Positions 2,307 to 30,140 of a stretch of 64,000 nucleotides of DNA are shown here, one piece after another. The DNA is taken from the NCBI GenBank assembly GCA_963837955.1, contig CAWIPH010000002.1, positions 1,354,966 to 1,418,965 on the forward strand, written 5' to 3'. Numbering within the stretch: the first letter of the stretch is position 1; every line of letters begins with the position of its first letter. The translations under genes and the position numbers were made by a program. This stretch comes from an uncultured Verrucomicrobiae bacterium. Its GTDB lineage: Bacteria; Verrucomicrobiota; Verrucomicrobiia; Chthoniobacterales; JAFAMB01. The notes under the pieces were generated by a model. That model saw nothing but the letters and a program-made list of their open reading frames with translations. It was not told the origin of the DNA and did no database searches.

Positions 2307-2307
2307 A

Positions 2308-4910: not shown

Positions 4911-4931
4911 TGCGCTCCGCAATTTTTATTT

Positions 4932-4964
4932 CTGAATTCTGAGTCTCGATTCAGGATTTTTTTT
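4932..4964 (+). terminator. Weak hairpin plus T8 tract after glcF
   Basis: CTGAAT(4932-4937)/ATTCAG(4949-4954) stem followed by TTTTTTTT (4957-4964). The stem is short and AT-rich. Confidence 0.35.
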
Positions 4965-5054
4965 GCTGATTGCCGCGGAAGTTTCCGGTATGCATTCTTC
5001 CAATTTCTTACGAAGTAGCTTTTCACAGCTCACTCGTCCCCCCACCCCCCAAAC

Positions 5055-14664: not shown

Positions 14665-15453
14665 TTACGAAACTTTTGCTGCAGCGTCATCCCGGACAGA
14701 GTTGAGCTCTTTGTTCTCCTGTGTGCCGCGCTTAGGTGTGAAGAGATTTGTTGTGTTTGCCGCAACCGCAGCGACGAATGCCGCGACCAAAGGATGATTG
14801 CGGCCGGCTAAGGCGGCTCTCTCCGGCTGAAACTGAGTGCCGAAAAAGAAAGGATGATTTTCCATCTCTACCGCTCGGACCTCGCCCTGCAGGTCGACAC
14901 CGGCCACTCGCAATGGCCCGTTCTCAAACTTCGCCGCAAATTCTCGGTTAAGACCGAATCGGCAGTGATATGGCTCATCGATTACGCTTTGGCCGTAGAT
15001 TTCGGCAGTGCGGGAACCACTTCGCAAAAAGATTCGATCTTCTACCTCAACCAGCGCGCATTGCAGCGGTGTGATCAACGGTAGCCGGGCGTCTGGATTC
15101 GATTCTTGGTGATCCGCGTCGACAAGTCCAAGGACCGATCGAGCGTATTCAACTATCGCATGCTGAAAACCACCGCAGGTACCGAGGAAGGGTCGCTTTT
15201 GCTCGCGCGCAAACCGAATAGCGCGAAGAGCGCCATCCATGCTTTTGTAAGGGCTCCCCGGAACGCACCAAAAGCCGGCGTATTGAGAGAGCGCTTCATC
15301 CGAAGCTGCAACAGCTGTTTCAGTCGGTAACCAAACGATGACAGGCGGAGTCTCCACCCCGTGTGAAGCGAGCTCAACGGCTCGAGGAATCGCGCGATGC
15401 GCGGTGACACCAGGATCGTAATCTCCAATCAGGGCGATCGAATGGGTCGGCAT
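14665..15453 (-). CDS. Stand-alone class-I glutamine amidotransferase related to the CTP synthase C-terminal domain
   Basis: The nucleophile elbow 'FLGTCGGFQH' and C-terminal 'FFFGTQFQPE' match the PyrG GATase domain. There is no synthetase domain. The start is taken at 'MPTHSIALIGDY' (15453), with an alternative at 15483. Confidence 0.8.
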   Translation of the reverse strand: MPTHSIALIGDYDPGVTAHRAIPRAVELASHGVETPPVIVWLPTETAVAASDEALSQYAGFWCVPGSPYKSMDGALRAIRFAREQKRPFLGTCGGFQHAIVEYARSVLGLVDADHQESNPDARLPLITPLQCALVEVEDRIFLRSGSRTAEIYGQSVIDEPYHCRFGLNREFAAKFENGPLRVAGVDLQGEVRAVEMENHPFFFGTQFQPERAALAGRNHPLVAAFVAAVAANTTNLFTPKRGTQENKELNSVRDDAAAKVS

Positions 15454-15531
15454 CGAATTCTTTAGCACACCACATCTAAGCATTCAAACACGTCGGGGAT
15501 GCCTCGTGTTTAAGATCCAGATGTGGTCGCT

Positions 15532-16901: not shown

Positions 16902-17470
16902 ATCCGACCCCGAGCCGGTAGTCCGCTGGCTCCAACCATGAGGCCTCGGTGTGAGCGCTCGACTGAGCTCACGACTTCGGGGAGCTAAACCACCCGCCGG
17001 CCGGTTTCGTTGTTTTCCAAAGGCGGCTCAGCCATAGGTATTCTGAATTGCCATGGGCTGGTTCCTGACCGCCAGGGCTAAGTTCGGCCGCCCGCGAGCC
17101 TTTTAGCTGTCAAGACAAGTTGACATCGGCAGCCACCGGCCGAAGCCATTTGCAGGAGTACGAGTCGCAGCAAAGCGCTGGTTCGACGGCGGATTGAACG
17201 GAATCTTGCCCGGAAGCCCTGAAATCGCAGAGACCGTCCTCCGGTGCAATCGACCTGTGAAGTCAATCTATAAATATTATAGGAGACCTCAGTTTTCCTC
17301 TGAGTCTCAAAATTGCAACAAGTTTGGTTGCATCTGCGAAATCGGCTCTCATTGTTGCCGGCGACTTGTGCAGTTTTGGCACAAGTCGGTCATTCGTAAG
17401 AATCGCAAATAGAATAAGTACCAGAATGCCATGGCCTTCGCCTCAGCATTCTGTAACAGGAGACTCTTGT

Positions 17471-18613
17471 ATGAGAAAAAAATTATTACTGCTTTTGGCC
17501 GCGGTCACCGTGGCAACCACCCTCGGGCGCGAAACCAGCGCTGGTTTTGCATCAACCAATGGCGTTAATGTAACCGTGGGGCTGCGGACACAGCCCATTA
17601 ACGATCTGGCCTTTGGTGCGCCGACTCATCCTGGCAACGGCCTGGTCTTTGGTGCGCCGACTCATCCTGGCAACGGCCTGGTCTTTGGTGGTCCGACTCA
17701 TCCCGGCAACGGCCTGGTCTTTGGTGGTCCGACTCATCCTGGCAACGGCCTAGTCTTTGGTGGTCCGACTCATCCTGGCAGCGGCCTAGTCTTTGGTGCG
17801 CCGACTCATCCTGGCAACGGCCTAGTCTTTGGTGCGCCGACTCATCCTGGCAACGGCCTAGTCTTTGGTGCGCCGACTCATCCCGGCAACGGCCTGGTCT
17901 TTGGTGGTCCGACTCATCCCGGCAACGGCCTGGTCTTTGGTGGTCCGACTCATCCTGGCAACGGCCTGGTCTTTGGTGGTCCGACTCATCCGATCAGCGG
18001 CCTAGTCTTTGGTGCGCCGACTCATCCGGGCAACGGCCTAGTCTTTGGTGGCCCGACTCACCCACCGATAAGCGGCTTAGTGTTTGGTGGCCCGACTCAC
18101 CCGCCGATCAGCGGCTTAGTCTTTGGTGGCCCGACTCACCCGCCGATCAGCGGCTTAGTGTTTGGTGGCCCGACTCACCCGCCGATCAGCAGCTTAGTCT
18201 TTGGTGGGCCGACCCATCCCTCGGCCAGCCGCGTTATGGCGAGGACCGGCGATTTTGTAATGCTTCCTCTCGGAACAGAAACCGGCCGTCATATCCGGAG
18301 GGGGAGTCTCGAATCTGAAAAGTCCGCCAAAGACTCGGAGTTGAGCAAATCGACTGTTTCGAATCCGCTCGCTATGCTCCCTTTGGGTAGGGAGAGCGGC
18401 CGACACATCCGGACCGAGAGCGCAAGAGATATCCACTCTGAGTCTGGTAAACACCAAGATGCGAATCCTATCGCACTGAACGGTCATCTGGGTATCGGCT
18501 ATGCGATGCTGCCTTTAGGAGCGGAGACGGGACGACACATCCGGAATCTGGACGAAAATAACAGAGCGACCGAAAGGACCGTCGTCGCGAGTGAACCGAA
18601 AGCGAGTGCGTAA
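17471..18613 (+). CDS. Secreted tandem-repeat protein: 17 x 'LVFG(A/G)PTHPGNG' followed by 3 x 'MLPLGxExGRHIR'
   Basis: AGGAG lies 8 nt upstream of the ATG at 17471. Signal peptide 'MRKKLLLLLAAVTVATTLG'. The repeats are in frame throughout. The ORF-track start at 17324 has no support. Confidence 0.75.
   Translation: MRKKLLLLLAAVTVATTLGRETSAGFASTNGVNVTVGLRTQPINDLAFGAPTHPGNGLVFGAPTHPGNGLVFGGPTHPGNGLVFGGPTHPGNGLVFGGPTHPGSGLVFGAPTHPGNGLVFGAPTHPGNGLVFGAPTHPGNGLVFGGPTHPGNGLVFGGPTHPGNGLVFGGPTHPISGLVFGAPTHPGNGLVFGGPTHPPISGLVFGGPTHPPISGLVFGGPTHPPISGLVFGGPTHPPISSLVFGGPTHPSASRVMARTGDFVMLPLGTETGRHIRRGSLESEKSAKDSELSKSTVSNPLAMLPLGRESGRHIRTESARDIHSESGKHQDANPIALNGHLGIGYAMLPLGAETGRHIRNLDENNRATERTVVASEPKASA
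17606..18229 (+). repeat. Coding tandem repeat: 12 units of 36 bp, 4 units of 39 bp, 1 unit of 36 bp
   Basis: Unit is CTGGTCTTTGGTG(G/C)(T/G)CCGACTCATCC(T/C)GGCAACGGC. Copies differ by 0-3 nt. The 39-bp variant carries an extra Pro codon (THPPISG). Confidence 0.95.
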
Positions 18614-18695: not shown

Positions 18696-19232
18696 TCACG
18701 GCTCGACAAAGCTCGAATGCATAACGACAATCACCCAGTTATCGTTAATTTTTCGGAAGACCATCGTCGAAGTGCCGAGCGTTTTCCCTTTCTTCTGAAA
18801 AACTGTCCACCAGTCCAGCCCAACGGCCACATCTGGTGAGACCAGTTGAATTTGAACGCGGTCATAGACGACAGAACCCATTTCGTCTCGATTGGGGTAG
18901 CCACGGTGATATGTCGCATTGACGTCCGCCCAGCCCTTCAATTGCTCCCCCTCAATGACCACCAGTAAATCTGGGGATTTCCAACAGGGAGCGAGGTATC
19001 CATCGATATCGTGCGCATTCCAACGGTCGCCCATATTGATGAGCAAGGTATATATTTGCTGGTAGTCAGACGGATCTAGCTGGGGTGCAGACTGTGTTGC
19101 TGAAGGCTTGATGGAATCAAAACCCCAGGTGCCATAGGTCGGGGCGTTCTGCGCGAAAAGAGCGGTCACAGGAAAGGAGCACAGCGTCCCCAAGAGGAGG
19201 GAGCGGAGGAGCTTTTTAGTGACCATAGACAA
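18696..19232 (-). CDS. Secreted NTF2-like (SnoaL/DUF4440-type) protein
   Basis: Signal peptide 'LLLGTLCSFPVTALFAQ'. The cone-fold pattern 'MGDRWNAHDIDGYLAPCW...WTVF...STMVFRKINDNWVIVVMHSS' is present. Confidence 0.65.
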   Translation of the reverse strand: MSMVTKKLLRSLLLGTLCSFPVTALFAQNAPTYGTWGFDSIKPSATQSAPQLDPSDYQQIYTLLINMGDRWNAHDIDGYLAPCWKSPDLLVVIEGEQLKGWADVNATYHRGYPNRDEMGSVVYDRVQIQLVSPDVAVGLDWWTVFQKKGKTLGTSTMVFRKINDNWVIVVMHSSFVEP

Positions 19233-19948
19233 ACGTGCTGTTCTGTTTAGCAGCTTTTTCCCGCTAAACTAGTTATTTCTAGAAATTATGTGTTTTTAAT
19301 CTCAATTATGAGAAATCGAGGATTTTCGAAGTTAAGACGATTCTCACTGGGATTCTTGCGTAGAATTTAAATCATCGGACGAGTTTCCGTAAAGATTATA
19401 AATATTTGAGGCGGGGTTACGGAACCCGCCCTGCGCATGACGGCGCAAGTTATCCGAGGGAGATATTAGAGTCGGTGCTGGCGCCCTTCGGTGTGCAATT
19501 TCGGCGCACACTCGCCCAGATAGCTCAGGTTCGGCGCAGGCGAACCGCGATTAGTTAGGCCCAAACTCGCCTGGCATACCCTCGAAACCGACTCTAAGAA
19601 GTTCTGCAGAGTTCGCTCGACCGAGGTCGCAGACGCCTGGAGATCCAGTGCTTGTTTCAGAGTCGGTTGGTGATAGCGATTCTCACTGAGCAGATTCATA
19701 TCAAGGAAGGAGATTTTGGAGAGTGGCTTGGTATTGAAAAAAAACCATACTGCGGCATCCCGATCGGCTGGTCCGCACCTTCTCGAAACTTTGGAAGCGG
19801 GTCCTCTGGTGGATCGAAGGATTCTTTGTCGGCTGCGCCGCGGCGAGAATCTGTGAACACCTCGGTTATTGCGTTCCGATTTAATATCCTTGCTGTGGCC
19901 AAATACCGACCGATATAACACCGGAAAGCCGCAAATGGAGATTGACCG

Positions 19949-22900
19949 GTGAACTCGGAGTCTTTTGGTGTTCTCGGTGCGTCAGGTCATTATCCGGCGT
20001 CCAATTCTTTGCCGCGTTTGCGCATCTTCGTTTCGTCGCCGGGAGATGTGGATACCGAACGCCAGATTGCTAGCCGAGTTATCGACCGGTTGCGTGTGCG
20101 ATTTCAAGAGCATGGCGAGATCGATCCATATTTCTGGGAGTACGAACCGATGCGCCATCACGCGACGTTCCAGAATCAGATACCGCCCACATCTGATTTT
20201 GATGTTGTTATCTGCATTCTTTGGTCTCGGCTCGGAACCCCACTGATAGGTCCGGACGGAAAACGCTACGCTTCGGGGACCGAGTACGAGGTCGCGTCCG
20301 CGCGCGAATCATGGAAAACCACCGGGAGTCCGGAGGTCATGATCTATCTGCATGACGCGCCCGCGCAGATTCGGCAATTCCCAGACTCCGAATTTCAAAA
20401 GATGGTGGATCAGTTGAAGGCGCTCAAACGCTTTGTCGCCGAATATTGCCAAGATCCGGCGACGGGGGAGATTAAGGGTGCGTTTACTACTTATCGAGAC
20501 CTCGGTCAGTTCGAGACACTGCTCGAAAAACATCTAGAAAAACTGATCGAGCGAAAACTGCCGAAGCGGTGGATTGATCAACGCACCGAGATAACCCCAC
20601 ATTGGGTGGGCCAGAGCCCTTTCCGGGGCTTGGCCGCCTTCGACTTTGAGCATTCACCGATCTTTTTCGGACGGACGAAAGCCGTGGGAGAGGTGCTCGC
20701 CCAGTTGCGCCGGCGAATGGGAGCAGTCGAAGATGCGCGAGCGGCCAAGATGCCAGAGATAACCGCTGCGGCCTTTGTACTCGTTTCCGCCATGAGCGGG
20801 GTGGGCAAATCGTCCCTGGTTCGAGCCGGCATTTTGCCGCTGCTGGTGGAGCCTGGAAACGGCATTGCGCTCTGGCGCCGCGCGGAGGTGCGACCAAGCG
20901 AGTTTGCTGGTGATCTCTTCGACGGCTTAGCCCGCGCGCTCTGCGCTGAGGAAGCGTTGCCAGAGTTGCTGAGCGGCGAGACAACGGTGGAAACGGTTGC
21001 TGGTTTTCTGCGTCGGAATCCGGCCGGCATCGAATTTGGATTAAGCAGCGCGTTGGATCGCGCTAGCGCCGAACTCAAGCGCCAGGAAGAGCTGGACCTC
21101 CAAGCCCAAGAGCAGAGTTTTCGCTACCATGGCCGGCTCGCCGATGCCGACGCAGCGGACGAGAAGATAGCGCAACTCCGCAAAGCAACCTTTCCGAGTC
21201 GCCTGGTTTTGGTCGTCGATCAGTTGGAAGAATTGTTTACGCTCGAATCGATCACGCCCGAGGTCCGCACGAATTTCATCACGGCAATCGCGGCGCTGGC
21301 CAGAAGCGGCCGGGTTGCGGTGCTGGTAACGTTGCGAAGCGATTTCTTTGAAAAATGCGCTGAGGTTCCCGTGCTCGCGGAGTTAAGCAAGGGAGATGGT
21401 CTGTACCACTTGCTTCCGCCCAACGCACTCGAGATCGGCCAGATGATCCGAGAACCGGCGATTGCGGCTGGTTTGCAGTTCGAGATTTTTCAGGAAACCA
21501 AACAATCTTTGGACGAACGCCTACGCGATGCTGCGACTCGCAACCCGGAGGCCCTACCGCTCTTGCAATTCTGCTTGGAAGCGCTGTACCAGGCTCAAGC
21601 GAAACGGGGAGACGGGCTGCTCACCCATGCCGATTACGATGCGATAGGTGGAGTGGAAGGAGCCCTGGCTAATCGGGCGGAGGAGACATTTCTTCGTTTG
21701 CAGCCCGCAGAACAAGCCGAGTTCAGCCGGGTGATGCGAGCGGTAACGACAGCAGATGATAACGAGACGTTCACCCGGCGCTGGGCCGATCGAGATGAAC
21801 TTACCCGCGTGCCGGCAGCAAAAGCATTTGTCGATGCGTTTCTGGCTCCGGAAGCGCGATTGCTGGTCGTCGATCGAGATCTCCGTGGTCGGGTCGTTGT
21901 GAGTGTCACTCACGAGGCGTTACTGACCCGCTGGGAACGCTTACATCAATGGTTGCTGACTAATCTGGAAAACTTGCGGATGCGCGCTCAGGTAAGCGCC
22001 GATGCCCTCCGCTGGCGTCAGAGTGGACGCAACAACGACTATCTCTACGCCGGCGCTCTGCCGTTGGCGAAGGCCCACGACTTGGCGGAGCGCGATTTTC
22101 TGGACGATGCGGAGCGAGAATTTGTCGATGCTTCCGTGCGGGCGGCGCGTTCGGCCTCGGAGAAGAAGCGTCGCAACTTGCACCGGGTAATCGCTGGCGT
22201 GAGCGTAGTTGCCATCGTCGCGATCGTGCTCGCTATCACGAGCTTCGTGCAATATTCGCGAGCCAGGGCGGCAAAGAGACAAGCAGGTCAAGCCGCTCAG
22301 CGGGCAAAGCTCGCACGCACCGAGGCCGAAAAATTAATCAACTTTCTGGTGGGCGATCTCCACGACAAACTGAAACCGATCGGCAGGCTGGATTTGTTGG
22401 CAGAGATTAGTAAACGCGTCCGGGCTTATTATGAGAACTTCGCGGAACGGGAAAAGAATCCCGAGGCGCTCAAACAATGGAGCACCGCGCTAATAAATCA
22501 GGGTGATGTATTAACTGATCAAGGCGACCTGGATGCCGCACTGAAATGTTATGAGGAGTCGCTCTCGACCAGACAAATTCTCTTAAAGCAGAGTTCGAAC
22601 AGTACAGAATCGCGGCGAGATGTTGCTTCCGCACTGTTAAAAATTGCCGGGAATCGACATGCCCGCGGCGATTTTAGCGGCGCGCTGGCAATTTACGAAC
22701 AGGCGTTAGCAATCCGAAGAGAGATCGTAGTGACCGAGCCGGGAAACCAAGAGTTTCAGCATGATCTTTCGGTTGCGCTGGAGTTCGTTGGGCGGGCGGC
22801 ACACAATGCCGGCGATCAGACCAAGGCGCTTCGGAACTTGCGAGACGCAATTGCGGTCGGTCGACAAATCGTGCGCGGAACCTCAGTACCAGCCGCTTGG

Positions 22901-24094
22901 CAGAGCGATTTATCTTACGCCCTGCTCCTCGCTGGCGACGTCTTCATGGAACAAAACGACTCGGCCGAAGCGCTACAAGAATATCAGGATTCACTAGTCA
23001 TTCGAGAGCGGCTAGCAAGGGCGGAGCCAGACGACTCAGATCGGCAAAGGGATTTAGCCTTGAGTCTGGAGGAGGTCGGATATGCATTGGCTGATCAGGG
23101 AGATGAAACGGCTGCTTTGGACAAACAGCGGTTAGCTCTCGCGATCCGAGAGAAACTGGTTGGCCGGGATCCGGAGAACACCGATTGGCGGCAACAATTA
23201 TCGGTGAGTTACCGAAACATCGGGAGAATTCTCGCTGACCAGGGAGATCTTGAAGCCGCCCTGGTGAGCTATCAAAGTGGTTTGCGAATCCGAGAAAAAT
23301 TGGCCGCAGACAACCCGTCGAATGACCTGGCCCAACGCGATCTCGGTATCACCGAAGGGGATATTGGGGAGATCTTCCTGATGAAAGATGACCCGGTTGG
23401 CGCTCTTGAAAAATTTCACATGGCGGTAACCCGCCTTCGAGCGCTGGCAACCAAAAATCCAGAGAACCTCCTCTGGCAAAGCGATCTTGGTGAAGCACTC
23501 ATGGAAGCTGGGGACGCGGAGACGAAAAATAGCGAATTTGAGTCCGGGTTCGCCGAACTCGACGAAGCGCTTTCCATTTTCGGCCGGCTCAGCCAGCGAG
23601 ATCCCAATAATCTGTTCTGGCAATATATGACTGCGCTCACCCAGGTGAATCTGGGAGTGCTTTGCGGGTCTCAGAAGAAGTGGGCCGACGCCCTCCACAG
23701 CGAAGAGATGGCCGCGGAAACACTTCACCGGCTTTTGCAACAGGTTCCATCTTCGGTTTCCTTTATCGAAGACTTGGCCAGATGTGATTATCGCATCGGC
23801 GAAGCAGCGGAAGGGAGTGGAGATGAAGAAAGAGCGACGGGCCGATTCAGGGAAGCGTACGATTTGTTAGAACCCCTGGTTAACAAAGAATCCGGGAGGC
23901 GAGAGTGGATAGTCCAGTTTGCTCGTGTCGCCTATCATTTGGGTACTGCTCTGCACTCCCCTGGAGAAGGTCGAGCGATTCTCGAGAAAGGTCGCGATGC
24001 ACTGCTACCGCTTGAACAAAAGAATCTTCTTAGTGCTGATGACAAGGCAACACTGACCGATATTCGAAACGTCCTTGACCGAAATAGAGACTGA
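19949..24094 (+). CDS. DUF4062-like N-terminal domain - STAND (nSTAND/NACHT-like) NTPase - TM helix - TPR array protein
   Basis: GTG start with GGAG 11 nt upstream. N-terminus: 'RIFVSSPGDVDTER...SGTEYEVASA'. 'FRGLAAFDFEHSPIFFGR' at nt 20621-20674. Walker A 'SAMSGVGKSSLVRAG' at ~20791-20812. Walker B 'LVLVVDQLEELF' at ~21200-21238. Hydrophobic helix 'VIAGVSVVAIVAIVLAITSFV' at ~22187-22249. The remaining ~550 aa are degenerate 40-aa TPR-like repeats ('...GD...AL..Y..SL.I...L'). Confidence 0.8.
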   Translation: MNSESFGVLGASGHYPASNSLPRLRIFVSSPGDVDTERQIASRVIDRLRVRFQEHGEIDPYFWEYEPMRHHATFQNQIPPTSDFDVVICILWSRLGTPLIGPDGKRYASGTEYEVASARESWKTTGSPEVMIYLHDAPAQIRQFPDSEFQKMVDQLKALKRFVAEYCQDPATGEIKGAFTTYRDLGQFETLLEKHLEKLIERKLPKRWIDQRTEITPHWVGQSPFRGLAAFDFEHSPIFFGRTKAVGEVLAQLRRRMGAVEDARAAKMPEITAAAFVLVSAMSGVGKSSLVRAGILPLLVEPGNGIALWRRAEVRPSEFAGDLFDGLARALCAEEALPELLSGETTVETVAGFLRRNPAGIEFGLSSALDRASAELKRQEELDLQAQEQSFRYHGRLADADAADEKIAQLRKATFPSRLVLVVDQLEELFTLESITPEVRTNFITAIAALARSGRVAVLVTLRSDFFEKCAEVPVLAELSKGDGLYHLLPPNALEIGQMIREPAIAAGLQFEIFQETKQSLDERLRDAATRNPEALPLLQFCLEALYQAQAKRGDGLLTHADYDAIGGVEGALANRAEETFLRLQPAEQAEFSRVMRAVTTADDNETFTRRWADRDELTRVPAAKAFVDAFLAPEARLLVVDRDLRGRVVVSVTHEALLTRWERLHQWLLTNLENLRMRAQVSADALRWRQSGRNNDYLYAGALPLAKAHDLAERDFLDDAEREFVDASVRAARSASEKKRRNLHRVIAGVSVVAIVAIVLAITSFVQYSRARAAKRQAGQAAQRAKLARTEAEKLINFLVGDLHDKLKPIGRLDLLAEISKRVRAYYENFAEREKNPEALKQWSTALINQGDVLTDQGDLDAALKCYEESLSTRQILLKQSSNSTESRRDVASALLKIAGNRHARGDFSGALAIYEQALAIRREIVVTEPGNQEFQHDLSVALEFVGRAAHNAGDQTKALRNLRDAIAVGRQIVRGTSVPAAWQSDLSYALLLAGDVFMEQNDSAEALQEYQDSLVIRERLARAEPDDSDRQRDLALSLEEVGYALADQGDETAALDKQRLALAIREKLVGRDPENTDWRQQLSVSYRNIGRILADQGDLEAALVSYQSGLRIREKLAADNPSNDLAQRDLGITEGDIGEIFLMKDDPVGALEKFHMAVTRLRALATKNPENLLWQSDLGEALMEAGDAETKNSEFESGFAELDEALSIFGRLSQRDPNNLFWQYMTALTQVNLGVLCGSQKKWADALHSEEMAAETLHRLLQQVPSSVSFIEDLARCDYRIGEAAEGSGDEERATGRFREAYDLLEPLVNKESGRREWIVQFARVAYHLGTALHSPGEGRAILEKGRDALLPLEQKNLLSADDKATLTDIRNVLDRNRD

Positions 24095-24128
24095 CAGGGC
24101 GGTCGAATTAAATCTCACGCGCCTTTGC

Positions 24129-24153
24129 CGCGCTCGGCCAATACCGCCGAGCG
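24129..24153. terminator. 9-bp GC hairpin between convergent genes
   Basis: GCGCTCGGC-CAATACC-GCCGAGCGC. It lies 35 nt after the STAND stop and 25 nt after the minus-strand lipoprotein stop. A paralogous hairpin is at 24841-24864. Confidence 0.4.
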
Positions 24154-24177
24154 CTTGTGTCCCTAGCCCGTCTGCAT

Positions 24178-24372
24178 TTAGTGTACGGGTGGTTGGTGCT
24201 TACCTACTGAAGGCGGCAGGGCCATTTTTCCCTCGGGGGCGGGTGCAGGAGCAGGTTTTGCTTCGTTGCAACACCCGGCGAAGCCAAGCGTGAGGAAAGC
24301 CAAACTGAGTAGCGCGACTTTTCCTAAACCAGGTGTCGCTAATCCCGTTTTTCTACTTTCCTGATACATCAT
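24178..24372 (-). CDS. Mini-lipoprotein A1 (64 aa)
   Basis: 'MMYQESRKTGLATPGLGKVALLSLAFLTLGFAGC|CNEAKPAPAPAPEGKMALPPSVGKHQPPVH'. It has a lipobox FAGC. A paralogue at 24899-25078 shares the start context and the CCNEAKP motif. Confidence 0.55.
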   Translation of the reverse strand: MMYQESRKTGLATPGLGKVALLSLAFLTLGFAGCCNEAKPAPAPAPEGKMALPPSVGKHQPPVH

Positions 24373-24489
24373 CGTTTTCTGGTTGTTCATGGTTACACAT
24401 CTGTCGCGATAGACGAGAGCGTAGGGAGACTCCGTTGGTTTGATCAAGGATCTTTTTTTGCTGTGCTCTATTCTAACCAGGCCAGAGCC

Positions 24490-24669
24490 TCACTGCTTTG
24501 GACTTGCACTATTAACTGGAGGATGATGGTTCGCTGGCTTTTTGGGAGGGGTTTTTTGCTTTTTCGGAGTGTGCTTCGCACTGGCTGACGGTGACGGACT
24601 CGGGTTGGCCGCTTGAATCACAGCGGTGCCGCCGAAGATAACAACCAACGTCAGAATCAACTTTTTCAT
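24490..24669 (-). CDS. Small secreted Pro/Lys/Ser-rich peptide B1 (59 aa, below ORF-track cutoff)
   Basis: Hand translation: 'MKKLILTLVVIFGGTAVIQA|ANPSPSPSASAKHTPKKQKTPPKKPANHHPPVNSASPKQ'. It has a signal peptide, and the 5' flank is conserved with B2. Confidence 0.5.
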   Translation of the reverse strand: MKKLILTLVVIFGGTAVIQAANPSPSPSASAKHTPKKQKTPPKKPANHHPPVNSASPKQ

Positions 24670-24684
24670 GGGTAGAAGTCCGCG

Positions 24685-24713
24685 AGGCTAATAAAGTCGT
24701 GCCGGAAAGGCAA
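24685..24713 (-). promoter_or_regulatory. Putative promoter of B1 (conserved with the copy at 25429-25457)
   Basis: On the minus strand: TTGCCT, 17 nt, TAGCCT. The block CGCGAGGCTAATAAAGTC..GGAAAGGCAATAC is conserved upstream of both B genes. Confidence 0.25.
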
Positions 24714-24898
24714 TACCCAGTCGGGGGGCGCTGGCGCTCAAGAGGACACCGCCAGAAACCACTACATTTCAGCTCAGCGCCTTCGAATATTCGCTAGAAA
24801 CACAAAAGGCGCGTCGACTTCAATTCACGCGCCTTTTGCCGCGCTCGGGCGAAAGACCGAGCGCTCCTTAGGTGTTTCCTAGCCCTCTTGAATTGGAA

Positions 24899-25078
24899 TT
24901 AGTGGTGGTGGTGTGGCTCTACGGGCTGTTTGCCTTCCACCGGCGCCGGTGCTGGGGTCGGTTTTGCCTCGTTGCAACAACCTGCGAGACCAAGGGTGAC
25001 CAAAGCCGAGCAGACTAGCGCGACTTTTCCTAAATCAATTGCCGTTAATCCTGTTTTTCTACTTTCCTGATTCATCAT
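24899..25078 (-). CDS. Mini-lipoprotein A2 (59 aa, below ORF-track cutoff), His4 tail
   Basis: Hand translation: 'MMNQESRKTGLTAIDLGKVALVCSALVTLGLAGC|CNEAKPTPAPAPVEGKQPVEPHHHH'. It has a lipobox LAGC. An in-frame stop lies 8 codons upstream of the Met-Met. Confidence 0.55.
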   Translation of the reverse strand: MMNQESRKTGLTAIDLGKVALVCSALVTLGLAGCCNEAKPTPAPAPVEGKQPVEPHHHH

Positions 25079-25186
25079 CTTTTTCTTCGTTTTTCGTTGT
25101 TACTTGTTAGTGACCTACTTGTTGCCATCGACGAGAGGGGGGAGACTCTATCGGTTTGATCGGGGGCCTTTTTGCTGCGTTCTCTT

Positions 25187-25411
25187 CTAGCCAGGCAAGG
25201 CCTCAAGGCGTTGGAGTTGGGCTTGCTTTGCCACCAACTGGAGGATGCCCGCTTGCCATCGCTTTGGGCATACCCTTTTTCGGCTCGTCCTCTTTCGGTC
25301 TACTCCTTGGAGTGGCCGACGCGGCGGCAGATGGCGATGGGCTAGGATGGTTGCCTGGATGACAGCACTAAAGCCGAAGACAGGAACCAATAGAATAATG
25401 ATCTCTTTCAT
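25187..25411 (-). CDS. Small secreted peptide B2 (74 aa as read; frameshifted relative to paralogue B1)
   Basis: The signal 'MKEIIILLVPVFGFSAVIQA' is in frame with a basic tail. The B1-like sequence ('NHPSPSPSAAASATP...PKKGMPKAMASGHPPVGGKASPTPTP*') is read in the -1 frame starting right after the signal peptide. Confidence 0.4.
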   Translation of the reverse strand: MKEIIILLVPVFGFSAVIQATILAHRHLPPRRPLQGVDRKRTSRKRVCPKRWQAGILQLVAKQAQLQRLEALPG

Positions 25412-25428
25412 GGCGTAGGCTGCTCGCG

Positions 25429-25457
25429 AGGCTAATAAAGTCTCGCAGGAAAGGCAA
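25429..25457 (-). promoter_or_regulatory. Putative promoter of B2
   Basis: Same TTGCCT-17 nt-TAGCCT arrangement as at 24685-24713. Confidence 0.25.
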
Positions 25458-25664
25458 TACCTACTCGCGAGGCGTTTTTTCGGCCGCAAAAAGGGGTTTA
25501 ACGGACAGCCGCGGTCCCGCAATTCGTGCGATACGAAGCCCCTGGTGACGGCTCCCCGGAGAAACGCGATCTGTTTGATTCTATGATTGGACACGACCGG
25601 GGCTATTGGGTTCTATTCCTGCAGGTTTAGCGAAACCTGATTTCCATCGTTCCGTCAGACACGT

Positions 25665-27038
25665 ATGGTTCCGCGCTTTCAAGTTCTGATTCCGATCCTT
25701 TGCCTGATTGCGTTCGTTAGCCAGGCCAGAGGAGAAAACGCGGCGAGCATTCCGCTGAATCATTTCATTTATATCATTCAGGAAAATCGAACATTCGATA
25801 ACTATTTCGGCAGTTATCCTGGAGCAAACGGGATTCCGGCCGGAACCAAATTAGCTTATCGACCCGGTGGAACCCCTGAAGTCGCGCCATTTCATCTGCA
25901 CAGTTTAACCATTCCGCACGATTTGAATCACAGCTGGCAGGCGGCCCGGACTGCTTGGAACAATGGAAAGATGAATGGATTCCTGTGGGCGGAGTGGCCG
26001 GCAGCCCTACGCCTCTATTGGGATTCCAAGGAAGTACCGAAGCCTGACGTTTCTGTAGTGCATCCGGTAAGTGATGCTGCGGGCGATCAGGGCGTAGAAA
26101 AGAGTAGCGAAGCGGAACGAGGCGGACGCTTCGGCGGAAGAAAGAGGTTTGGCCAACCCAGAGCAGACTCACCCCCTGCTTGGGTGTTGAACACGCTTTC
26201 CTACTACGATTGGCACGAAATTCCCAATTATTGGGAGTATGCCCGGCGATTCACTTTGTCCGACGCATTTTTCTCTTCCCTGATGGGGCCAAGCGAACCC
26301 AACCATCTTTATACCGTAGCAGCCCAGTCCGGTGGCCTGGTTAACAACCCTGGACCTTCCATCGCCCATCAGCCTGGAGTCTACAGTTTCCCGACTTTCG
26401 CGGAGTTGCTGCAAGCTTCGCATATCTCCTGGAAATATTACGACGAAAAACCAAACCCACGTGCCCATAGCCTATGGAACCCGCTACCTGGCTTTAGACA
26501 GTTCCAACAACGTCCAGAGTTGATGCAACGCTTGGTCTCGAGCCAAGAGTTTGTCGGCGATCTTCAGGCCGGGAAGCTGCCCCAGGTGAGCTGGGTTGTT
26601 CCAATCGCGCCGGACAGCGAGCATCCACCCGCTGACGTCCAGCGTGGAATGTGGCACGTGACGGAACTAATTAACGCCGTCATGCAGAGCAAATACTGGA
26701 ACGACAGTGTGATTATTGTCACCTGGGACGACTACGGCGGTTTCTATGACCATGTGGCGCCTCCTAGTCTGGACAAGTACGGCTTCGGGCCACGCGTTCC
26801 GGCGCTGGTGATTTCGCCATACGCGCGGTCAGGTTATATCTGTCATACCCAATTCGATTTCACCTCACCATTAAAGCTGATCGAGAAGCGATTTGGATTG
26901 AAAGCGCTGTCGGCGCGAGACGCCGCCTCACCCGACATGACAGATTGCTTTGATTTTCAACAGAAGCCTTTGCCGCCCGACATTATCAACCGCGAAACCA
27001 AGCTAGATTTTAGCGCGGTCAAAACCACCTTGCCCTAG
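25665..27038 (+). CDS. Secreted phosphoesterase (phospholipase C / acid phosphatase AcpA family)
   Basis: Signal peptide, then '[22 protein letters not shown]' and '[15 protein letters not shown]...[14 protein letters not shown]', the hallmark motifs of the PF04185-type family. Confidence 0.85.
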
Positions 27039-27317: not shown

Positions 27318-30140
27318 TCAATTAGAGGCCAAGTGCTCTTTCTTCAACAGTAGCGAACGATTACGACGCAGGTCGACCCCGGTGCGGACGGTCGGGTACG
27401 GCTTATCACCGTGCAGGCCTTCCCAGATAATCCGGTTAAACTTGCCTGGATCGATATTGTCTTCGCGGGTGAAGTCGAACTGTTTCGTCTTATCTGCCCA
27501 GTAAGCAGCATCGTGCGTTGGTTTCGGAACGACTTTATTTTTCGCGAACCGATTCGGCAACGGTAACTTCGTGTTGTACAAGTAGGTCGACGGTACCGCA
27601 TCGAACGTCCATTCCCGCTGGTTAAGGTCGAAGACTTTCGTCATCGGTTTTTCCGAAGCGGTCAGTACGTCTACGTGATCGATGTTGAGTATGTCTTCAA
27701 TCGTTCTGAGCATGTTGACAGTAGTGTACTTCTCCGAAATCACGACACCCTGCTTCAGGTAAGGTCCAACTACGTATCCGGTCGACCGGTGCGAATCAAC
27801 GTGATCTGCGCCGTCTTGGGAGTCATCCTCCAGGATGAAGATCAAGGTGTCCGACTTGTAGGGGCTCTTGGCTACTTTTTCGATCAGCTTGGCCACGGCG
27901 TAATCGTTATCGGCCTGTTGGAGCTCTGGAGTGTCGACCTCGTCAATCGCTGTGCCAAATGAACCCATATGATCGTGCATCAAGCGTACGATCGAGAGCG
28001 CCGGCAGATCACCTTTTTGGACATAACCGTCGAATTCCCGTTCCCACTCTTTCTCCCGCCAGAAATCCGGGAGGGCATTGTCAAAAGCGCGGAAGTAGAG
28101 GTCGGTCGTGTTCAGCAAAGCAACCCGAGACGGAAAAGCGACTTGGACGTGAGCTTTATACGGATCTCGTAGAAGAGGCGTTGCTTGGCCATTCGGGAGA
28201 AAATAGGGCGTCAGATCGCAATGGTATCCGTAATTGCGAAAAGTTTTACCCGCCCGGGCGACGGCATCCCAGATATAGCCTTGCTGGACGTCATCATTGC
28301 CGGGGCCATCGACCGCTCCGACGTCGGCAGTACCAGGCAGAATATTAGGATCGCTTGGCGAGATCGGATCGGATTTCTGTCGCTCTTGAGGAGTGGCAAA
28401 GCCGACGTTAATGTCACGATTCTGGCCCTCAGAATCGTAGGCAGCACCGCGACTAGAGTAGTTTTGAGGGATGCTGATCGTCGATAGATCGTTTTCGCGT
28501 CCGGCAAAACTCCAGATGTGACCGTCACCGCTCACATCACCCGTGTTATAGAAGTTGTCGAGGTCAACGAACTGCTTGACGAGCGCGTGGAAGTTCGGCG
28601 TGATCGCTTGTCCGAAGTCGACCAGGGTTGGATCTCCGTTGCCACGATCCAGATCTCCGAAGAGTTGGTCATAGGTGCGGTTTTCCTTAACTAGATAAAT
28701 CACGTGCTTGATTCGACTTTGCAGCCCGGTAATCACTTTCTCTTCGTCGGCGCTCAGTTTGGCTGTGAAATGGTTGTTTTTCGCAACCTGGGTCGTGAGG
28801 TTAGCGAGATCCTGTGCGCTCGGAACTGGGAAGCTCTGCAAATACGATTTTTGCAGTTCTTCAACGTACTGGTTGGGATCCTTTTGGTTGAAATAGGTCA
28901 ACCCAGGGTTCGGGCCGGTTACGCCTTTGCCGTCAACGACGTAAACATATTTACCATCAGTACTGAGAGTGACCGCGTTTGGTAGGAATCCCGCGGGAAT
29001 CAAGCCAACCACCACTGGATGAAATGGAATTCCCTGTATGACCGAAACAGCGTTGGTTCCGCCGAGGGTGACATAAAGAGTGCTGCCATCAGGCGATAAC
29101 GCTGCACTATTAGGCGCGCTGCCGCGATAGGTTAGGACTTTGTCGAATGCGAGTTCATCCGGGGCGCTGGCGATCACGCTCTGAAAAAGCGTATTGTCCT
29201 TTGTGCTGATAATATCAACCAGATCGCTATTATCTTCAGTGACGTAGAGGTAGCTCTGCGTTTGGTCGAGGATCGTCTTGAGTGGGTTGCCGGCAACCGC
29301 TACCCGCGTAACGATCTTCGGGGTTGTAACAGTCGCGAAGTCGACAACGACCACTTCGCGATCACGGGCGCTGGAGACATACGCGGTCTTGCTTCCTTTG
29401 ACCGTAACCCAGAATGGGTATTCCCCTCCTGGCACGCCCGATTCCGCTGGGTTAATTATGCCGGGACGGAGATCGAGCTCTTTCACGACGGAGCGACTTT
29501 GCACGTCGATAAAGGAGATCGATTCGTTATTATAGTTTGCGACCACTAACGTTTTTCCATCTTGGGTAATATCAAGGCCACCGGTGAGGCCTGGCAAATC
29601 GCCCGGGAAAAGCGCAACGGCTGAGCTATGGCCGAGCTTGATCGGAGTGCCCGATTCAGCCCACTGACCGTTTTGGATAGTAAACGAGTGGATGTCGTCG
29701 TCTCCACCGCCGCCAACATACAAGGTCTGTCCGGCCGGATCGAAAACGATGCCGACAAAAGCGTTCGGCAGCTGAATCACCTGCTTTTTGACAGGGACGC
29801 CATTGCTGATGTCGAAGACGAAGATGTATTCGTTGTTAAATGAGTTTCCGTGAGTGTCGGTCAAGTTGTTGTGGCCGCCAGTCAAAACGACCAAGGTCTT
29901 TCCGTCCGGACTTTTAACTGTGCTGAGAGCGCCCCCGGCGATAAAGTTCGGGAAGTTGGGGAGATCGGGATTTAAGGCTTCATAGGTCGAGTTGGGCGCA
30001 GCCGTCGGGGTAATGGTCAATCCTGAAGGCAGGAAGGTACCTTGATCGGCATTCGCCAGCGAGAGAGGCGCTAGCGAAGAAATAGCAACCGCGCTGGATA
30101 AAATCAGGCGGTGCAGAGGCTTTCTGTTTGGAGTGAACAT
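27318..30140 (-). CDS. Secreted beta-propeller (YncE/lactonase-like repeats) - phosphoesterase fusion protein
   Basis: 940 aa with a signal peptide. The N-terminal ~450 aa carry repeated 'DG(K/S)TL(Y/V)V...' propeller blades. The C-terminal half has 'VIYLVKENRTYDQLFGDL' and 'FILEDDSQDGADHVDSHRS' (PLC/AcpA family). Confidence 0.85.
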   Translation of the reverse strand: MFTPNRKPLHRLILSSAVAISSLAPLSLANADQGTFLPSGLTITPTAAPNSTYEALNPDLPNFPNFIAGGALSTVKSPDGKTLVVLTGGHNNLTDTHGNSFNNEYIFVFDISNGVPVKKQVIQLPNAFVGIVFDPAGQTLYVGGGGDDDIHSFTIQNGQWAESGTPIKLGHSSAVALFPGDLPGLTGGLDITQDGKTLVVANYNNESISFIDVQSRSVVKELDLRPGIINPAESGVPGGEYPFWVTVKGSKTAYVSSARDREVVVVDFATVTTPKIVTRVAVAGNPLKTILDQTQSYLYVTEDNSDLVDIISTKDNTLFQSVIASAPDELAFDKVLTYRGSAPNSAALSPDGSTLYVTLGGTNAVSVIQGIPFHPVVVGLIPAGFLPNAVTLSTDGKYVYVVDGKGVTGPNPGLTYFNQKDPNQYVEELQKSYLQSFPVPSAQDLANLTTQVAKNNHFTAKLSADEEKVITGLQSRIKHVIYLVKENRTYDQLFGDLDRGNGDPTLVDFGQAITPNFHALVKQFVDLDNFYNTGDVSGDGHIWSFAGRENDLSTISIPQNYSSRGAAYDSEGQNRDINVGFATPQERQKSDPISPSDPNILPGTADVGAVDGPGNDDVQQGYIWDAVARAGKTFRNYGYHCDLTPYFLPNGQATPLLRDPYKAHVQVAFPSRVALLNTTDLYFRAFDNALPDFWREKEWEREFDGYVQKGDLPALSIVRLMHDHMGSFGTAIDEVDTPELQQADNDYAVAKLIEKVAKSPYKSDTLIFILEDDSQDGADHVDSHRSTGYVVGPYLKQGVVISEKYTTVNMLRTIEDILNIDHVDVLTASEKPMTKVFDLNQREWTFDAVPSTYLYNTKLPLPNRFAKNKVVPKPTHDAAYWADKTKQFDFTREDNIDPGKFNRIIWEGLHGDKPYPTVRTGVDLRRNRSLLLKKEHLASN

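Follow-up and report, generated by a model that had tools for sequence, protein, structure and literature searches.

The 1381-residue protein encoded in the window, by which we mean the whole stretch of 64,000 nucleotides analysed, combines a DUF4062-like domain, an nSTAND1 NTPase, a transmembrane (TM) helix and a TPR array, in this order (Table 1). This four-part layout had been correctly recognized in the initial annotation. We propose, giving this explanation about an even chance of being right, that the protein is a single-pass inner-membrane STAND (NLR-like) receptor, predicted to hold its sensor outside and its NTPase switch and TIR-like output inside the cytoplasm. The parent family is very large, bacterial and unstudied and, by analogy, looks like a cross of Toll-like and NOD-like immune receptors.

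Table 1. Features of the gene and its product (positions refer to the window)
Feature	Residues	Position	Strand	Basis or remark
Complete ORF	1-1381	19949..24094	+	GTG start, GGAG 8 nt upstream, monocistronic
DUF4062-like (TIR/NDT-like) Rossmannoid domain	23-203	20015..20557	+	Pfam, AF2, fold neighbours
Pfam DUF4062 match	25-116	20021-20296	+	N-terminal domain scanned alone
Codon of E114 (SGTEYEVASA), putative catalytic Glu, start of helix alphaC	114	20288..20290	+	invariance
nSTAND1 NTPase module	224-696	20618..22036	+	PF20703 match, motifs, AF2
Lead-in SPFRGLAAFDFEHSPIFFGR	223-242 (FRGL...FFGR part 225-242)		+	motif
Walker A SGVGKSS	283-289	20795-20815	+	K287 codon 20807-20809
Walker B LVLVVDQLEELF	419-430	21203-21238	+	motif
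Helical linker	697-746	22037..22186	+	ends in basic cluster SEKKRRNLHR, predicted cytoplasmic side of helix
Single transmembrane helix VIAGVSVVAIVAIVLAITSFV	747-767	22187..22249	+	hydropathy, insertion energy, conservation
Juxtamembrane helical stalk, conserved	768-838	22250..22462	+	identity to homologues
TPR array, hypervariable, ~11 units	839-1381	22463..24091	+	Pfam, self-built HMM, divergence

The N-terminal domain

The initial annotation had placed DUF4062 at the N-terminus. When the N-terminal domain is scanned alone, the Pfam profile (PF13271) is indeed covered almost in full (positions 1-80 of 82, E 2.8e-4), but the score of 21.5 bits falls short of the gathering score of 24.7 and the domain is therefore filed as DUF4062-like and not as a curated DUF4062 member. 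Among homologous N-terminal domains, 28 of 40 match DUF4062 at E<=0.01 (best 3.9e-6). The suggested Rossmannoid TIR/NDT-like nature is borne out by a confident AF2 model (pLDDT 88.9, pTM 0.80), in which five beta-alpha units adopt the five-stranded parallel TIR/NDT-like fold, and by the fold neighbours. The best of these in a viral library is a deoxyribosyltransferase (E 3.6e-7, TM 0.52), and further ones are TIR, NDT and CMP hydrolase folds. In the PDB, TIR-STING and the RPV1 TIR domain are among the neighbours, but these matches are weak and interspersed with other flavodoxin-like folds.

Twenty residues of the domain are invariant in 31 diverse representatives that share 28-47% identity. 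Besides E114 they include F27, which belongs to an N-terminal aromatic motif, S30-V34, E37, R38, W63, E64, Q75, D85, W92, R94, G96, G110 and T111. TIR-like NADase activity that depends on a Glu has been demonstrated for the DUF4062 domains of Swarozyc, Evangelion and human TEP1 (10.64898/2026.05.01.722283, 10.64898/2026.06.25.731849). Oligomerization switches this activity on and the Glu is needed (10.64898/2026.05.01.722283); in the case of TEP1 the NADase is activated by concentration or oligomerization. The candidate effector role put forward in the initial annotation has thereby gained experimental backing. Judged by motif position rather than by direct alignment to the characterized proteins, E114 appears equivalent to KpSwz E97, Eva01 E87 and TEP1 E1008. 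The N-terminal domain is probably an NAD-cleaving TIR-like domain.

The nSTAND1 NTPase

The NTPase had been described as nSTAND/NACHT-type. The first part of this designation stands, as PF20703 is matched with 298.2 bits against a gathering score of 27.1 (E 1.7e-88) over profile positions 1-378 of 379. The second does not: NACHT (PF05729) gives no Pfam match at E<=1, and beyond nSTAND1 there is only a weak AAA_16 match for the NTPase. The FRGL...FFGR lead-in and both Walker motifs were found where they had been placed, Walker A (GxxGxGKS) and Walker B (hhhhDQxEE) are intact, and all 35 homologues compared share G284, G286, K287, S288, D424 and E428. The AF2 model (pLDDT 87.1) leads from a P-loop core via a helical domain to a winged-helix-like region, and its nearest solved folds found by Foldseek are Cdc6/ORC-type and other AAA+ proteins, not solved NLR or Avs structures.

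nSTAND1 has been assigned to counter-invader systems (Kaur et al., 2021). The protein shares its NTPase family with the nSTAND1 conflict systems (Kaur et al., 2021), among them the DGR-diversified nSTAND1-FGE targets (Dore et al., 2024). These systems, however, are cytoplasmic and often paired or linked to an EAD adaptor or a DGR, none of which is observed here. A Chloroflexota plasmid encodes in tandem two proteins in which the DUF4062-like and nSTAND1 module is combined with an FGE-type sensor and lacks the TM helix, a further link of the module to conflict.

Transmembrane helix and topology

A hydrophobic helix had been located at about aa 747-767 and occupies exactly these residues. Kyte-Doolittle hydropathy averages 2.71 over 19 residues of the helix, and with a predicted insertion energy of -2.06 kcal/mol it is the sole segment of the protein with a negative value (next best +4.55). 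Far from being the unusual break as which it had been described, a helix directly after nSTAND1 is the rule in the family, where it is present in 119 of 120 close and 128 of 141 more distant homologues. The uncharged stretch of 21 residues, its charged flanks, the insertion energy and the conservation of its position in about 90-99% of homologues argue for a membrane span and, since there is one single span, the two halves of the protein would lie on opposite sides.

We infer that residues 1-746 lie in the cytoplasm and the TPR array in the periplasm, because the NTPase and the NAD-utilizing domain require cytoplasmic nucleotides and because basic residues reside mainly on the N-flank of the helix. 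In fact, 107 of 119 homologues carry more K/R on the N-flank than on the C-flank (mean 6.2 versus 3.9), and WD40-type homologues have merely one or two on the C side; in the protein studied here the C-flank is basic as well, with four K/R versus six. FG-GAP/VCBS or PD40-type repeats are typical of exported proteins, and such repeats follow the helix in some homologues. A point against a periplasmic array is that 600-800 residues of canonical WD40/TPR repeats would have to be exported, which is feasible.

In Apaf-1 and Avs the sensor folds back onto the NTPase. With the predicted topology, the membrane would block such fold-back, so that activation would have to proceed through ligand-driven clustering, comparable to Toll-like receptors and receptor kinases. 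The TPR array would bind a ligand outside the cytoplasm, be it of phage, competitor or cell envelope origin; clustering would then lead to nucleotide-dependent oligomerization of the nSTAND1 modules at the inner membrane face, and the TIR-like domains thus brought together could hydrolyse NAD(P)+ via E114, resulting in growth arrest or a signal. In paralogues, an N-terminal Ser/Thr kinase may provide a second output.

The same helix bears on the notion of a cytosolic antiviral STAND protein of the Avs type, in which the TPR array would bind a cytoplasmic phage protein and the helix would serve as a peripheral anchor or oligomerization element. The order of effector, STAND NTPase and variable repeat sensor does match Avs and bNACHT proteins in outline, and DUF4062 proteins are capable of phage defence via sensing of portal or replication proteins. 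We nevertheless consider this notion highly unlikely: the conserved single helix separates the NTPase from a sensor predicted to lie outside the cytoplasm, which disrupts cytoplasmic contiguity if the inferred topology is correct, neither the Avs/AVAST models in PADLOC nor NACHT models are matched, and the gene resides outside any defence island. As a statement on family membership, the term Avs-like used in the initial annotation has to be dropped; the only PADLOC candidate is PDC-S60, which matches the N-terminal domain (aa 24-158, whole protein scanned, E<=1). Bacterial NACHT proteins with TM regions have been listed as a class that may respond to signals from the membrane or the periplasm (Kibby et al.), but this class has multiple TM regions, whereas here one span is predicted to be followed by a repeat ectodomain.

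The repeat array

As had been suggested, TPR-like repeats follow the helix. Pfam matches to TPR_10, TPR_12 and TPR_1 begin at aa 839, and a self-built HMM reveals seven clear 48-residue units, six of them contiguous (aa 839-1122) and one at aa 1176-1218; from their spacing, a total of about 11 units can be expected up to aa ~1365. The stalk that precedes the array is 87-92% identical in orthologues and 55-59% in kinase-bearing homologues. In comparison with the syntenic orthologue, identity drops abruptly at aa ~851 from 82-96% (about 90%) to 18-52% (about 36%), which is the behaviour of a fast-evolving sensor. The core is under strong purifying selection as deduced from dN/dS values of 0.02-0.06 (0.02-0.03 for the N-terminal domain), while the TPR array, compared with P0002 at equal dS, reaches 0.18 and thereby exceeds the core three- to ninefold; versus P0003, the array is saturated or replaced. 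The divergence could also be caused by low constraint on solenoid repeats and not by an arms race; dN/dS stays below 1.

The core of DUF4062-like domain, nSTAND1 and TM helix is conserved in thousands of proteins (at least 4,850 clusters at 50% identity for the core module), and the helix is followed by TPR, WD40 or FG-GAP repeats, depending on the homologue. WD40-type homologues exhibit 58-64% core identity and are thus closer than many TPR-type ones, which indicates that the sensor has been swapped.

These properties are difficult to reconcile with a membrane-anchored scaffold devoid of receptor function, in which the TPR array would organize an envelope complex and the NTPase would act as an assembly or remodelling ATPase. 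A scaffold with conserved partners is not expected to maintain an array at 36% identity next to a remainder at about 90%, nor to exchange TPR for WD40 or FG-GAP repeats, and the neighbourhoods inspected (window and homologue loci) contain no envelope-machine genes. On the other hand, TPR arrays are common as scaffolds, TPR lipoproteins of pilus and secretion machines appear in NCBIfam as weak matches that lie far below the cut-offs, and conserved genes for a small lipoprotein and secreted peptides are located immediately 3' of the gene. All in all, a scaffold appears improbable.

Relation to characterized systems

The order DUF4062/TIR-like domain, STAND NTPase, WD40/TPR repeats is shared with the TEP1-like DUF4062-NACHT-repeat proteins of eukaryotes and bacteria (TEP1, NWD1, NWD2, NPHP3). 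NPHP3 also has TPR_10/12-type repeats in common with our protein, for which Pfam reports a weak TPR_NPHP3 match. Here, however, the NTPase is nSTAND1 and not NACHT, the DUF4062 match is sub-threshold, a conserved TM helix is inserted between NTPase and repeats, and TROVE and vWA are absent. Swarozyc and Evangelion, single-gene anti-phage systems reported in 2026 preprints with NAD+ depletion after assembly as the output, resemble the N-terminal domain in their DUF4062-type TIR-like core, the conserved Glu in S-x-T-E-x-E and the aromatic motif. In contrast, they are short, consist of DUF4062 and a small auxiliary region without NTPase, TM helix and repeats, are encoded on plasmids or within defence islands and recognize portal or replication proteins of phages in the cytoplasm. 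With Toll-like receptors, the proposed receptor would have in common a solenoid repeat ectodomain, a single TM helix, a cytoplasmic TIR-type domain and induced proximity. This is an analogy only and does not imply whole-protein homology: the TIR-like domain is N-terminal, so that the polarity is reversed, TPR repeats take the place of LRR, and an NTPase switch is interposed.

Genomic context and a possible signalling function

The gene lies in an unremarkable chromosomal region and shares synteny with its orthologues, in which synonymous sites are nearly saturated. Verrucomicrobiota MAGs encode a 100% identical protein (P0001) as well as orthologues with 68-87% identity. The window and the eight homologue loci inspected all show housekeeping contexts, with no defence genes nearby and no mobile genes; not one of these homologue loci is a defence island, and PADLOC matched none of the neighbour genes. 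The module of N-terminal domain and nSTAND1 is carried by a single one of 72,556 plasmids and is absent from the phage records. Synteny and the lack of association with defence islands weaken the classical defence-island reading, and these data are more readily explained by a stable housekeeping or signalling gene than by a mobile defence gene of the typical kind. Even in this syntenic setting, a conflict role stays conceivable in view of the hypervariable TPR array. Of the findings that the initial annotation had named as speaking against its reading, synteny without defence islands has thus largely been encountered, while nothing points to a non-enzymatic N-terminal adaptor, given the invariance of the active-site-like residues.

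Bacterial receptor Ser/Thr kinases of the PknD type possess an extracytoplasmic repeat sensor, and the protein resembles them in that a single TM helix connects a catalytic part in the cytoplasm with repeats that are predicted to lie outside; the output differs, being a STAND NTPase plus TIR-like domain here, with a kinase as an addition in paralogues. A non-immune transmembrane signalling protein that senses the envelope or the environment in the manner of receptor kinases is conceivable, although we rate it as rather unlikely. Its periplasmic TPR array would read a self or environmental cue, nSTAND1 would be the switch, and the DUF4062-like domain would have a regulatory, nucleotide-binding or oligomerization function instead of being a suicidal NADase. 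The stable, syntenic chromosomal context without defence or mobile genes and the very strong purifying selection on the core are in agreement with such a role. The same applies to an extra N-terminal Ser/Thr kinase ahead of the module in about half of the close homologues and to a Pkinase-TM-TPR protein of the same layout, which lacks STAND and is encoded in the same genomes at an orthologous locus (L001 2692-5616; post-TM region 25% identical over 410 aa). Furthermore, human NWD1, NWD2 and NPHP3, which have the DUF4062-NTPase-repeat layout, showed no detectable NADase activity in vitro. Several points speak against a signalling role: the putative catalytic Glu and its surrounding residues are invariant, the sharp break to a hypervariable array and the swapping of sensors are immune-receptor-like, conflict systems are the usual association of both nSTAND1 and DUF4062, and in these systems a kinase, too, can be the effector (Kaur et al., 2021).

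Regarding the immediate surroundings, the flanking ORFs, namely the upstream neighbour (18696-19232) and all small ORFs downstream, are on the minus strand, in accordance with the monocistronic nature noted initially. The compositional break claimed for the left side was not confirmed and amounts to no more than a mildly AT-rich intergenic stretch (GC 0.465-0.48 versus ~0.54), and the duplicated cassette on the right corresponds to a tandem repeat of about 710 bp at 24100-25480.

Domain layout of the STAND protein

The open reading frame proposed for the STAND gene is present (see the table below), starts with GTG, is preceded by GGAG and encodes 1381 amino acids, and the motifs quoted in the initial annotation are found at the places assigned to them. 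As its neighbours are all located on the other strand, the gene is indeed monocistronic; promoter and terminator scans gave nothing above chance level. A homologue search retrieved a 100% identical protein and orthologues at 68-87% identity in metagenome-assembled genomes (MAGs) of Verrucomicrobiota, which assigns the window to this phylum. The predicted STAND-type NTPase corresponds to Pfam nSTAND1 (PF20703; aa 224-696, E = 1.7e-88), and by profile match and Walker motifs the sequence classifies as an nSTAND1 member. The assignment of the N-terminus to DUF4062 holds insofar as aa 25-116 align over the whole profile, but the score of 21.5 bits obtained when the N-terminus was scanned alone is below the 24.7-bit cut-off. 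DUF4062 is matched at E<=0.01 by 28 of 40 homologous N-domains. On these grounds the domain is termed DUF4062-like, short of the curated cut-off. The hydrophobic helix spans exactly aa 747-767 and has a predicted insertion energy of -2.06 kcal/mol, the sole negative segment of the protein (runner-up +4.55). Pfam matches to TPR_10, TPR_12 and TPR_1 begin at aa 839, and from there onward a self-built HMM detects 48-residue TPR-type units, about 11 judged by spacing.

Coordinates of features in the window and in homologue loci
Sequence	Position	Strand	Feature
Window	1001-5000		GlcD/E/F-like FAD and Fe-S oxidase subunits; GC 0.61-0.63 (~0.54 elsewhere)
Window	14665-15483		GATase-like gene between OpgC and GDSL-lipase genes
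Window	17324-18613	+	429-aa ORF, TTG start
Window	19411-19432		GC-rich hairpin ggcggggttacggaacccgcc, just beyond the following ORF
Window	19466-19921	-	151-aa ORF upstream of STAND gene
Window	19949-24094	+	STAND gene
Window	24100-25480		Tandem ~710-bp duplication (cassette)
Window	24178-24447	-	Cassette ORF
Window	24490-24669	-	Cassette ORF
Window	24899-25078	-	Cassette ORF
Window	~25190-25412	-	Cassette ORF
Window	25665-27038		Phosphoesterase-family gene
Window	27318-30140		Phosphoesterase-family gene with lactonase-like beta-propeller
L001 (68% orthologue)	2692-5616		Pkinase-TM(414)-TPR gene, 974 aa
L012 (MAG Verrucomicrobiota BP_749)	1430-5573		Closest genomic orthologue of STAND gene
L030 (plasmid NZ_CP128403.1)	2834-5728		First gene of paralogous pair
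L030 (plasmid NZ_CP128403.1)	5977-8820		Second gene of paralogous pair

The membrane span in the protein family

The initial annotation considered the membrane-spanning break unusual. The helix is instead a defining feature of the family, because 119 of the 120 best homologues keep it directly after nSTAND1, as do 128 of 141 further representatives, in the latter almost always as a single helix at residue ~680-740. A full-length search yielded 3,800 proteins with E<=1e-5 among 8,000 candidates scored. When aa 1-800 were compared exhaustively with 1.84 billion cluster representatives, 4,850 of these matched at E<=1e-30 and 24,746 at E<=1e-10. Defined at 50% identity, the clusters with a membrane span between NTPase and repeats number at least 4,850. 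The protein studied here is by no means exceptional within this very large family, which is uncharacterised and whose topology the searched literature does not address.

Upstream of the helix, the DUF4062-like domain and nSTAND1 are constant, with an extra Ser/Thr kinase in front (proteins of ~1,720 aa) in about every second close homologue, whereas the part downstream is variable. It consists of TPR arrays in the clade of our protein, of canonical WD40 arrays in 18 of 31 systematically sampled representatives, and of FG-GAP/VCBS or PQQ-like propellers in other members. Since WD40-type proteins share 58-64% identity with the core of our protein, more than many TPR-type proteins do, the post-membrane module must have been exchanged. 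The helix together with the stalk segment, used as query, returned four fragments only and did not reveal other cytoplasmic modules with the same ectodomain. A family member of 1456 aa (P0014), named 'conflict system STAND superfamily ATPase' by JGI, has the DUF4062-like domain twice in tandem, a second nSTAND1 copy being assumed. Its hydrophobic helix lies at the extreme C-terminus with nothing beyond, such that the protein looks tail-anchored, and its sequence suggests that membrane anchoring itself may be the conserved requirement.

Predicted topology and comparison with known receptors

With only one span, the segments before and after the helix must lie on different sides of the membrane, and the NTPase, the kinase of the paralogues and a putative NAD-dependent domain all require the cytoplasm. 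Lysine and arginine residues are more frequent on the N-terminal than on the C-terminal side of the helix in 107 of 119 homologues (mean 6.2 vs 3.9); this contrast is sharper in WD40-type members, and the C-flank of our protein's own helix is itself fairly basic. In the L001 locus, a Pkinase-TM-TPR gene of the same layout lies between OpgC and GDSL lipase, and after the membrane helix its product shares 25% identity with the STAND protein. tblastn found no match to this gene in the window, where a GATase-like gene sits at the corresponding place. Taken together, the cytoplasm-dependent domains, the charge bias of the flanks and the kinase gene of like layout point to a topology with the N-terminus inside and the repeat array outside.

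STAND and NLR receptors are almost by definition cytoplasmic, and their repeat domain folds back on the NTPase and thereby holds it off. This usual model of autoinhibition cannot apply to the present family because the membrane span parts the NTPase from the repeats. Sensing is probably extracytoplasmic. A bacterial NACHT class with TM regions may read membrane or periplasmic signals (Kibby et al.); one membrane span with a repeat ectodomain after it is described neither there nor in the nSTAND1 papers or the 2026 DUF4062 preprints. Closest in presumed working are TEP1, NWD1 and NPHP3 (DUF4062-NACHT-repeat) and, in their logic, the antiviral STAND (Avs) proteins. Our protein differs from these in NTPase clade and, chiefly, in the membrane span between switch and sensor. 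As a statement of membership the label 'Avs-like' has to be dropped: by sequence (PADLOC, Pfam) the protein is neither an Avs nor a NACHT protein, and its sole PADLOC match, on the N-domain, is to the candidate model PDC-S60, which is not mentioned in the searchable literature. Foldseek searches of the PDB gave generic AAA+/ORC matches for aa 1-746 and placed neither this part nor the N-domain near solved Avs or NLR structures. That the protein works as a cytosolic Avs is very unlikely.

The N-terminal domain

The AlphaFold2 model of the N-domain, based on a 40-sequence alignment (the homologue search gave mostly short fragments, which were kept as alignment rows), has a pLDDT of 88.9, a pTM of 0.80 and five beta-alpha units. 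Its best neighbour in a viral structure library is a deoxyribosyltransferase (E 3.6e-7, TM 0.52), and TIR (CAP12/Pycsar effector), nucleoside 2-deoxyribosyltransferase and CMP hydrolase folds are found among further neighbours in that library. Against the PDB, Foldseek matches are weak and mixed, with TIR-STING and a plant TIR domain among other flavodoxin-like folds, and comparison with PDB chains by sequence, as single sequence or as 40-sequence profile, returned nothing meaningful. In 31 representatives at 28-47% identity, F27, S30-V34, E37, R38, W63, E64, Q75, D85, L91, W92, R94, G96, G110, T111, E114 and A118 are invariant. On account of these residues and a dN/dS of 0.02-0.03, the conservation of the domain is the pattern of a working, albeit putative, active site and not that of a degenerate adaptor.

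DUF4062 is a TIR-like NADase that serves the Swarozyc and Evangelion anti-phage systems and human TEP1, the catalytic glutamate being E97 in KpSwz, E87 in Eva01 and E1008 in TEP1 (10.64898/2026.05.01.722283; 10.64898/2026.06.25.731849). Judged by its place in the S-x-T-E-x-E motif, where alphaC begins, E114 would be the equivalent residue. NADase activity is not to be assumed, since NWD1, NWD2 and NPHP3 were inactive in vitro (2026 DUF4062 preprints).

Mosaic conservation

Compared with its syntenic orthologue P0003 (locus L011), the protein is 82-96% identical over aa 1-850 but only 18-52% (36% overall) over the TPR array from aa 851; the corresponding values for the protein P0002 are 82-98% and 52-76%. 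According to Nei-Gojobori estimates, dN/dS of the core is 0.02-0.06 at a dS of about 1-1.9, while the array reaches 0.18 against P0002 at the same dS as the core (1.13). Against P0003, synonymous sites of the array are saturated and dN is 0.70, and for this reason the array looks replaced. Judged from such sequence comparisons, the mosaic is what would be expected of a sensor that diversifies or is exchanged by recombination; dN/dS stays below 1, and low constraint on solenoid repeats could account for part of the fast divergence. The orthologue at L012 (87% core identity) is readable only via three frame changes, at ~aa 696, 964 and 1263, and owes these either to gene decay or to a fault in the assembly.

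Genomic context and links to conflict systems

The window is ordinary chromosome with glycolate-oxidase-like genes, a lactate permease, a xanthine-dehydrogenase-family gene, OpgC, a GDSL lipase, phospholipase-C-type phosphoesterases, a histidine kinase and sugar genes; it contains no tRNA or Rfam elements, and no neighbour of the STAND gene matches a PADLOC model. Orthologues at 68-79% identity share this gene order, and more distant homologues reside in other housekeeping contexts, one of them flanked by a chemotaxis operon and a urease operon. None of eight contexts is a recognisable defence island, and no conserved partner gene was found. Promising candidates for such a partner were the ~176-aa proteins encoded on the minus strand beside close and distant homologues, but these are unrelated (20-23% identity); the neighbour in the window is a SnoaL-like secreted protein. 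The 'compositional break' noted to the left amounts to no more than an intergenic stretch with slightly raised AT content. Orthologous loci contain no conserved equivalent of the 151-aa ORF that precedes the STAND gene, and this ORF is probably non-coding.

The duplicated mini-gene cassette to the right was recovered as described. Each copy codes for two small products, a lipoprotein (lipobox L-(G/A)-G-C; mature CCNEAKPxPAPAP...) and a secreted Pro-rich peptide. A single cassette just 3' of the orthologous STAND genes at L001, L002, L011 and L012, with a weak match in L026, shares ~85% nucleotide identity with the second copy, a conservation as high as that of the STAND core. The cassette products may serve the TPR ectodomain as periplasmic partner or ligand, or have nothing to do with it.

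nSTAND1 was defined as a counter-invader NTPase (PMC8195603) and occurs in putative antigen sensors diversified by DGR (Dore et al. 2024). On plasmids of Streptomyces and cyanobacteria it is fused to caspase, trypsin and TIR effectors, and phage records held nothing comparable to the DUF4062-like plus nSTAND1 module. A plasmid of Ca. Chlorohelix allophototropha (Chloroflexota) carries two adjoining paralogous genes, annotated as SUMF1/EgtB/PvdO family (L030), both of whose products begin with the DUF4062-like set of motifs, carry an FGE-type sensor and lack a TM helix (maximum hydropathy 1.1); in addition, the second matched aa 22-701 of our protein (DUF4062-like plus nSTAND1). This pair resembles the paired nSTAND1-FGE 'antigen sensor' targets of DGRs.

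Functional interpretation

The data establish the architecture and how well it is conserved, the invariant residues of the N-domain and the hypervariability of the array. Beyond these, a transmembrane STAND receptor would be the best-supported reading, and we regard the chances of this mechanism as roughly even; a function as scaffold is improbable. The hypervariable sensor and the family pedigree favour a role in conflict. The stable housekeeping context, the strong core conservation and the kinase-bearing paralogues favour a role in signalling, and a non-immune signalling version without NADase output is possible, if rather unlikely. In that case, DUF4062 and nSTAND1 domains would not be reliable markers of defence systems.

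In this family the membrane-span layout is coupled to a class of TIR-like domains whose NADase activity was demonstrated only in 2026. If topology and activity hold, the transmembrane receptor would be a bacterial type that merges Toll-like logic (outside repeats, TM helix, inside TIR) with a NOD-like NTPase switch. More tentatively, and with doubts prevailing, the family may constitute a huge undescribed prokaryotic class of such NLR-like Toll/NOD hybrids that answer periplasmic non-self with TIR-like NAD+ cleavage inside. A hypervariable TPR, WD40 or FG-GAP ectodomain would bind phage ejection proteins, competitor toxins or predator factors in the periplasm, and clustering would carry the signal over the membrane, leading to STAND oligomerisation and NAD+ cleavage in the cell. 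The products of the conserved adjoining genes, a small Pro-rich lipoprotein and a peptide, might act as co-receptors or decoys. Innate immune sensing would then take place ahead of the invader's entry into the cytoplasm.

Other features of the window

The 429-aa ORF has a weak sub-threshold match to an RFEGP-type repeat (PCF11_RFEG_rpt) and probably encodes a low-complexity repeat protein. The raised GC content around the oxidase genes probably reflects gene content rather than foreign DNA. The two phosphoesterase-family genes (phospholipase C/acid phosphatase type) adjoin each other, and the one fused to a beta-propeller is syntenic in orthologous loci.
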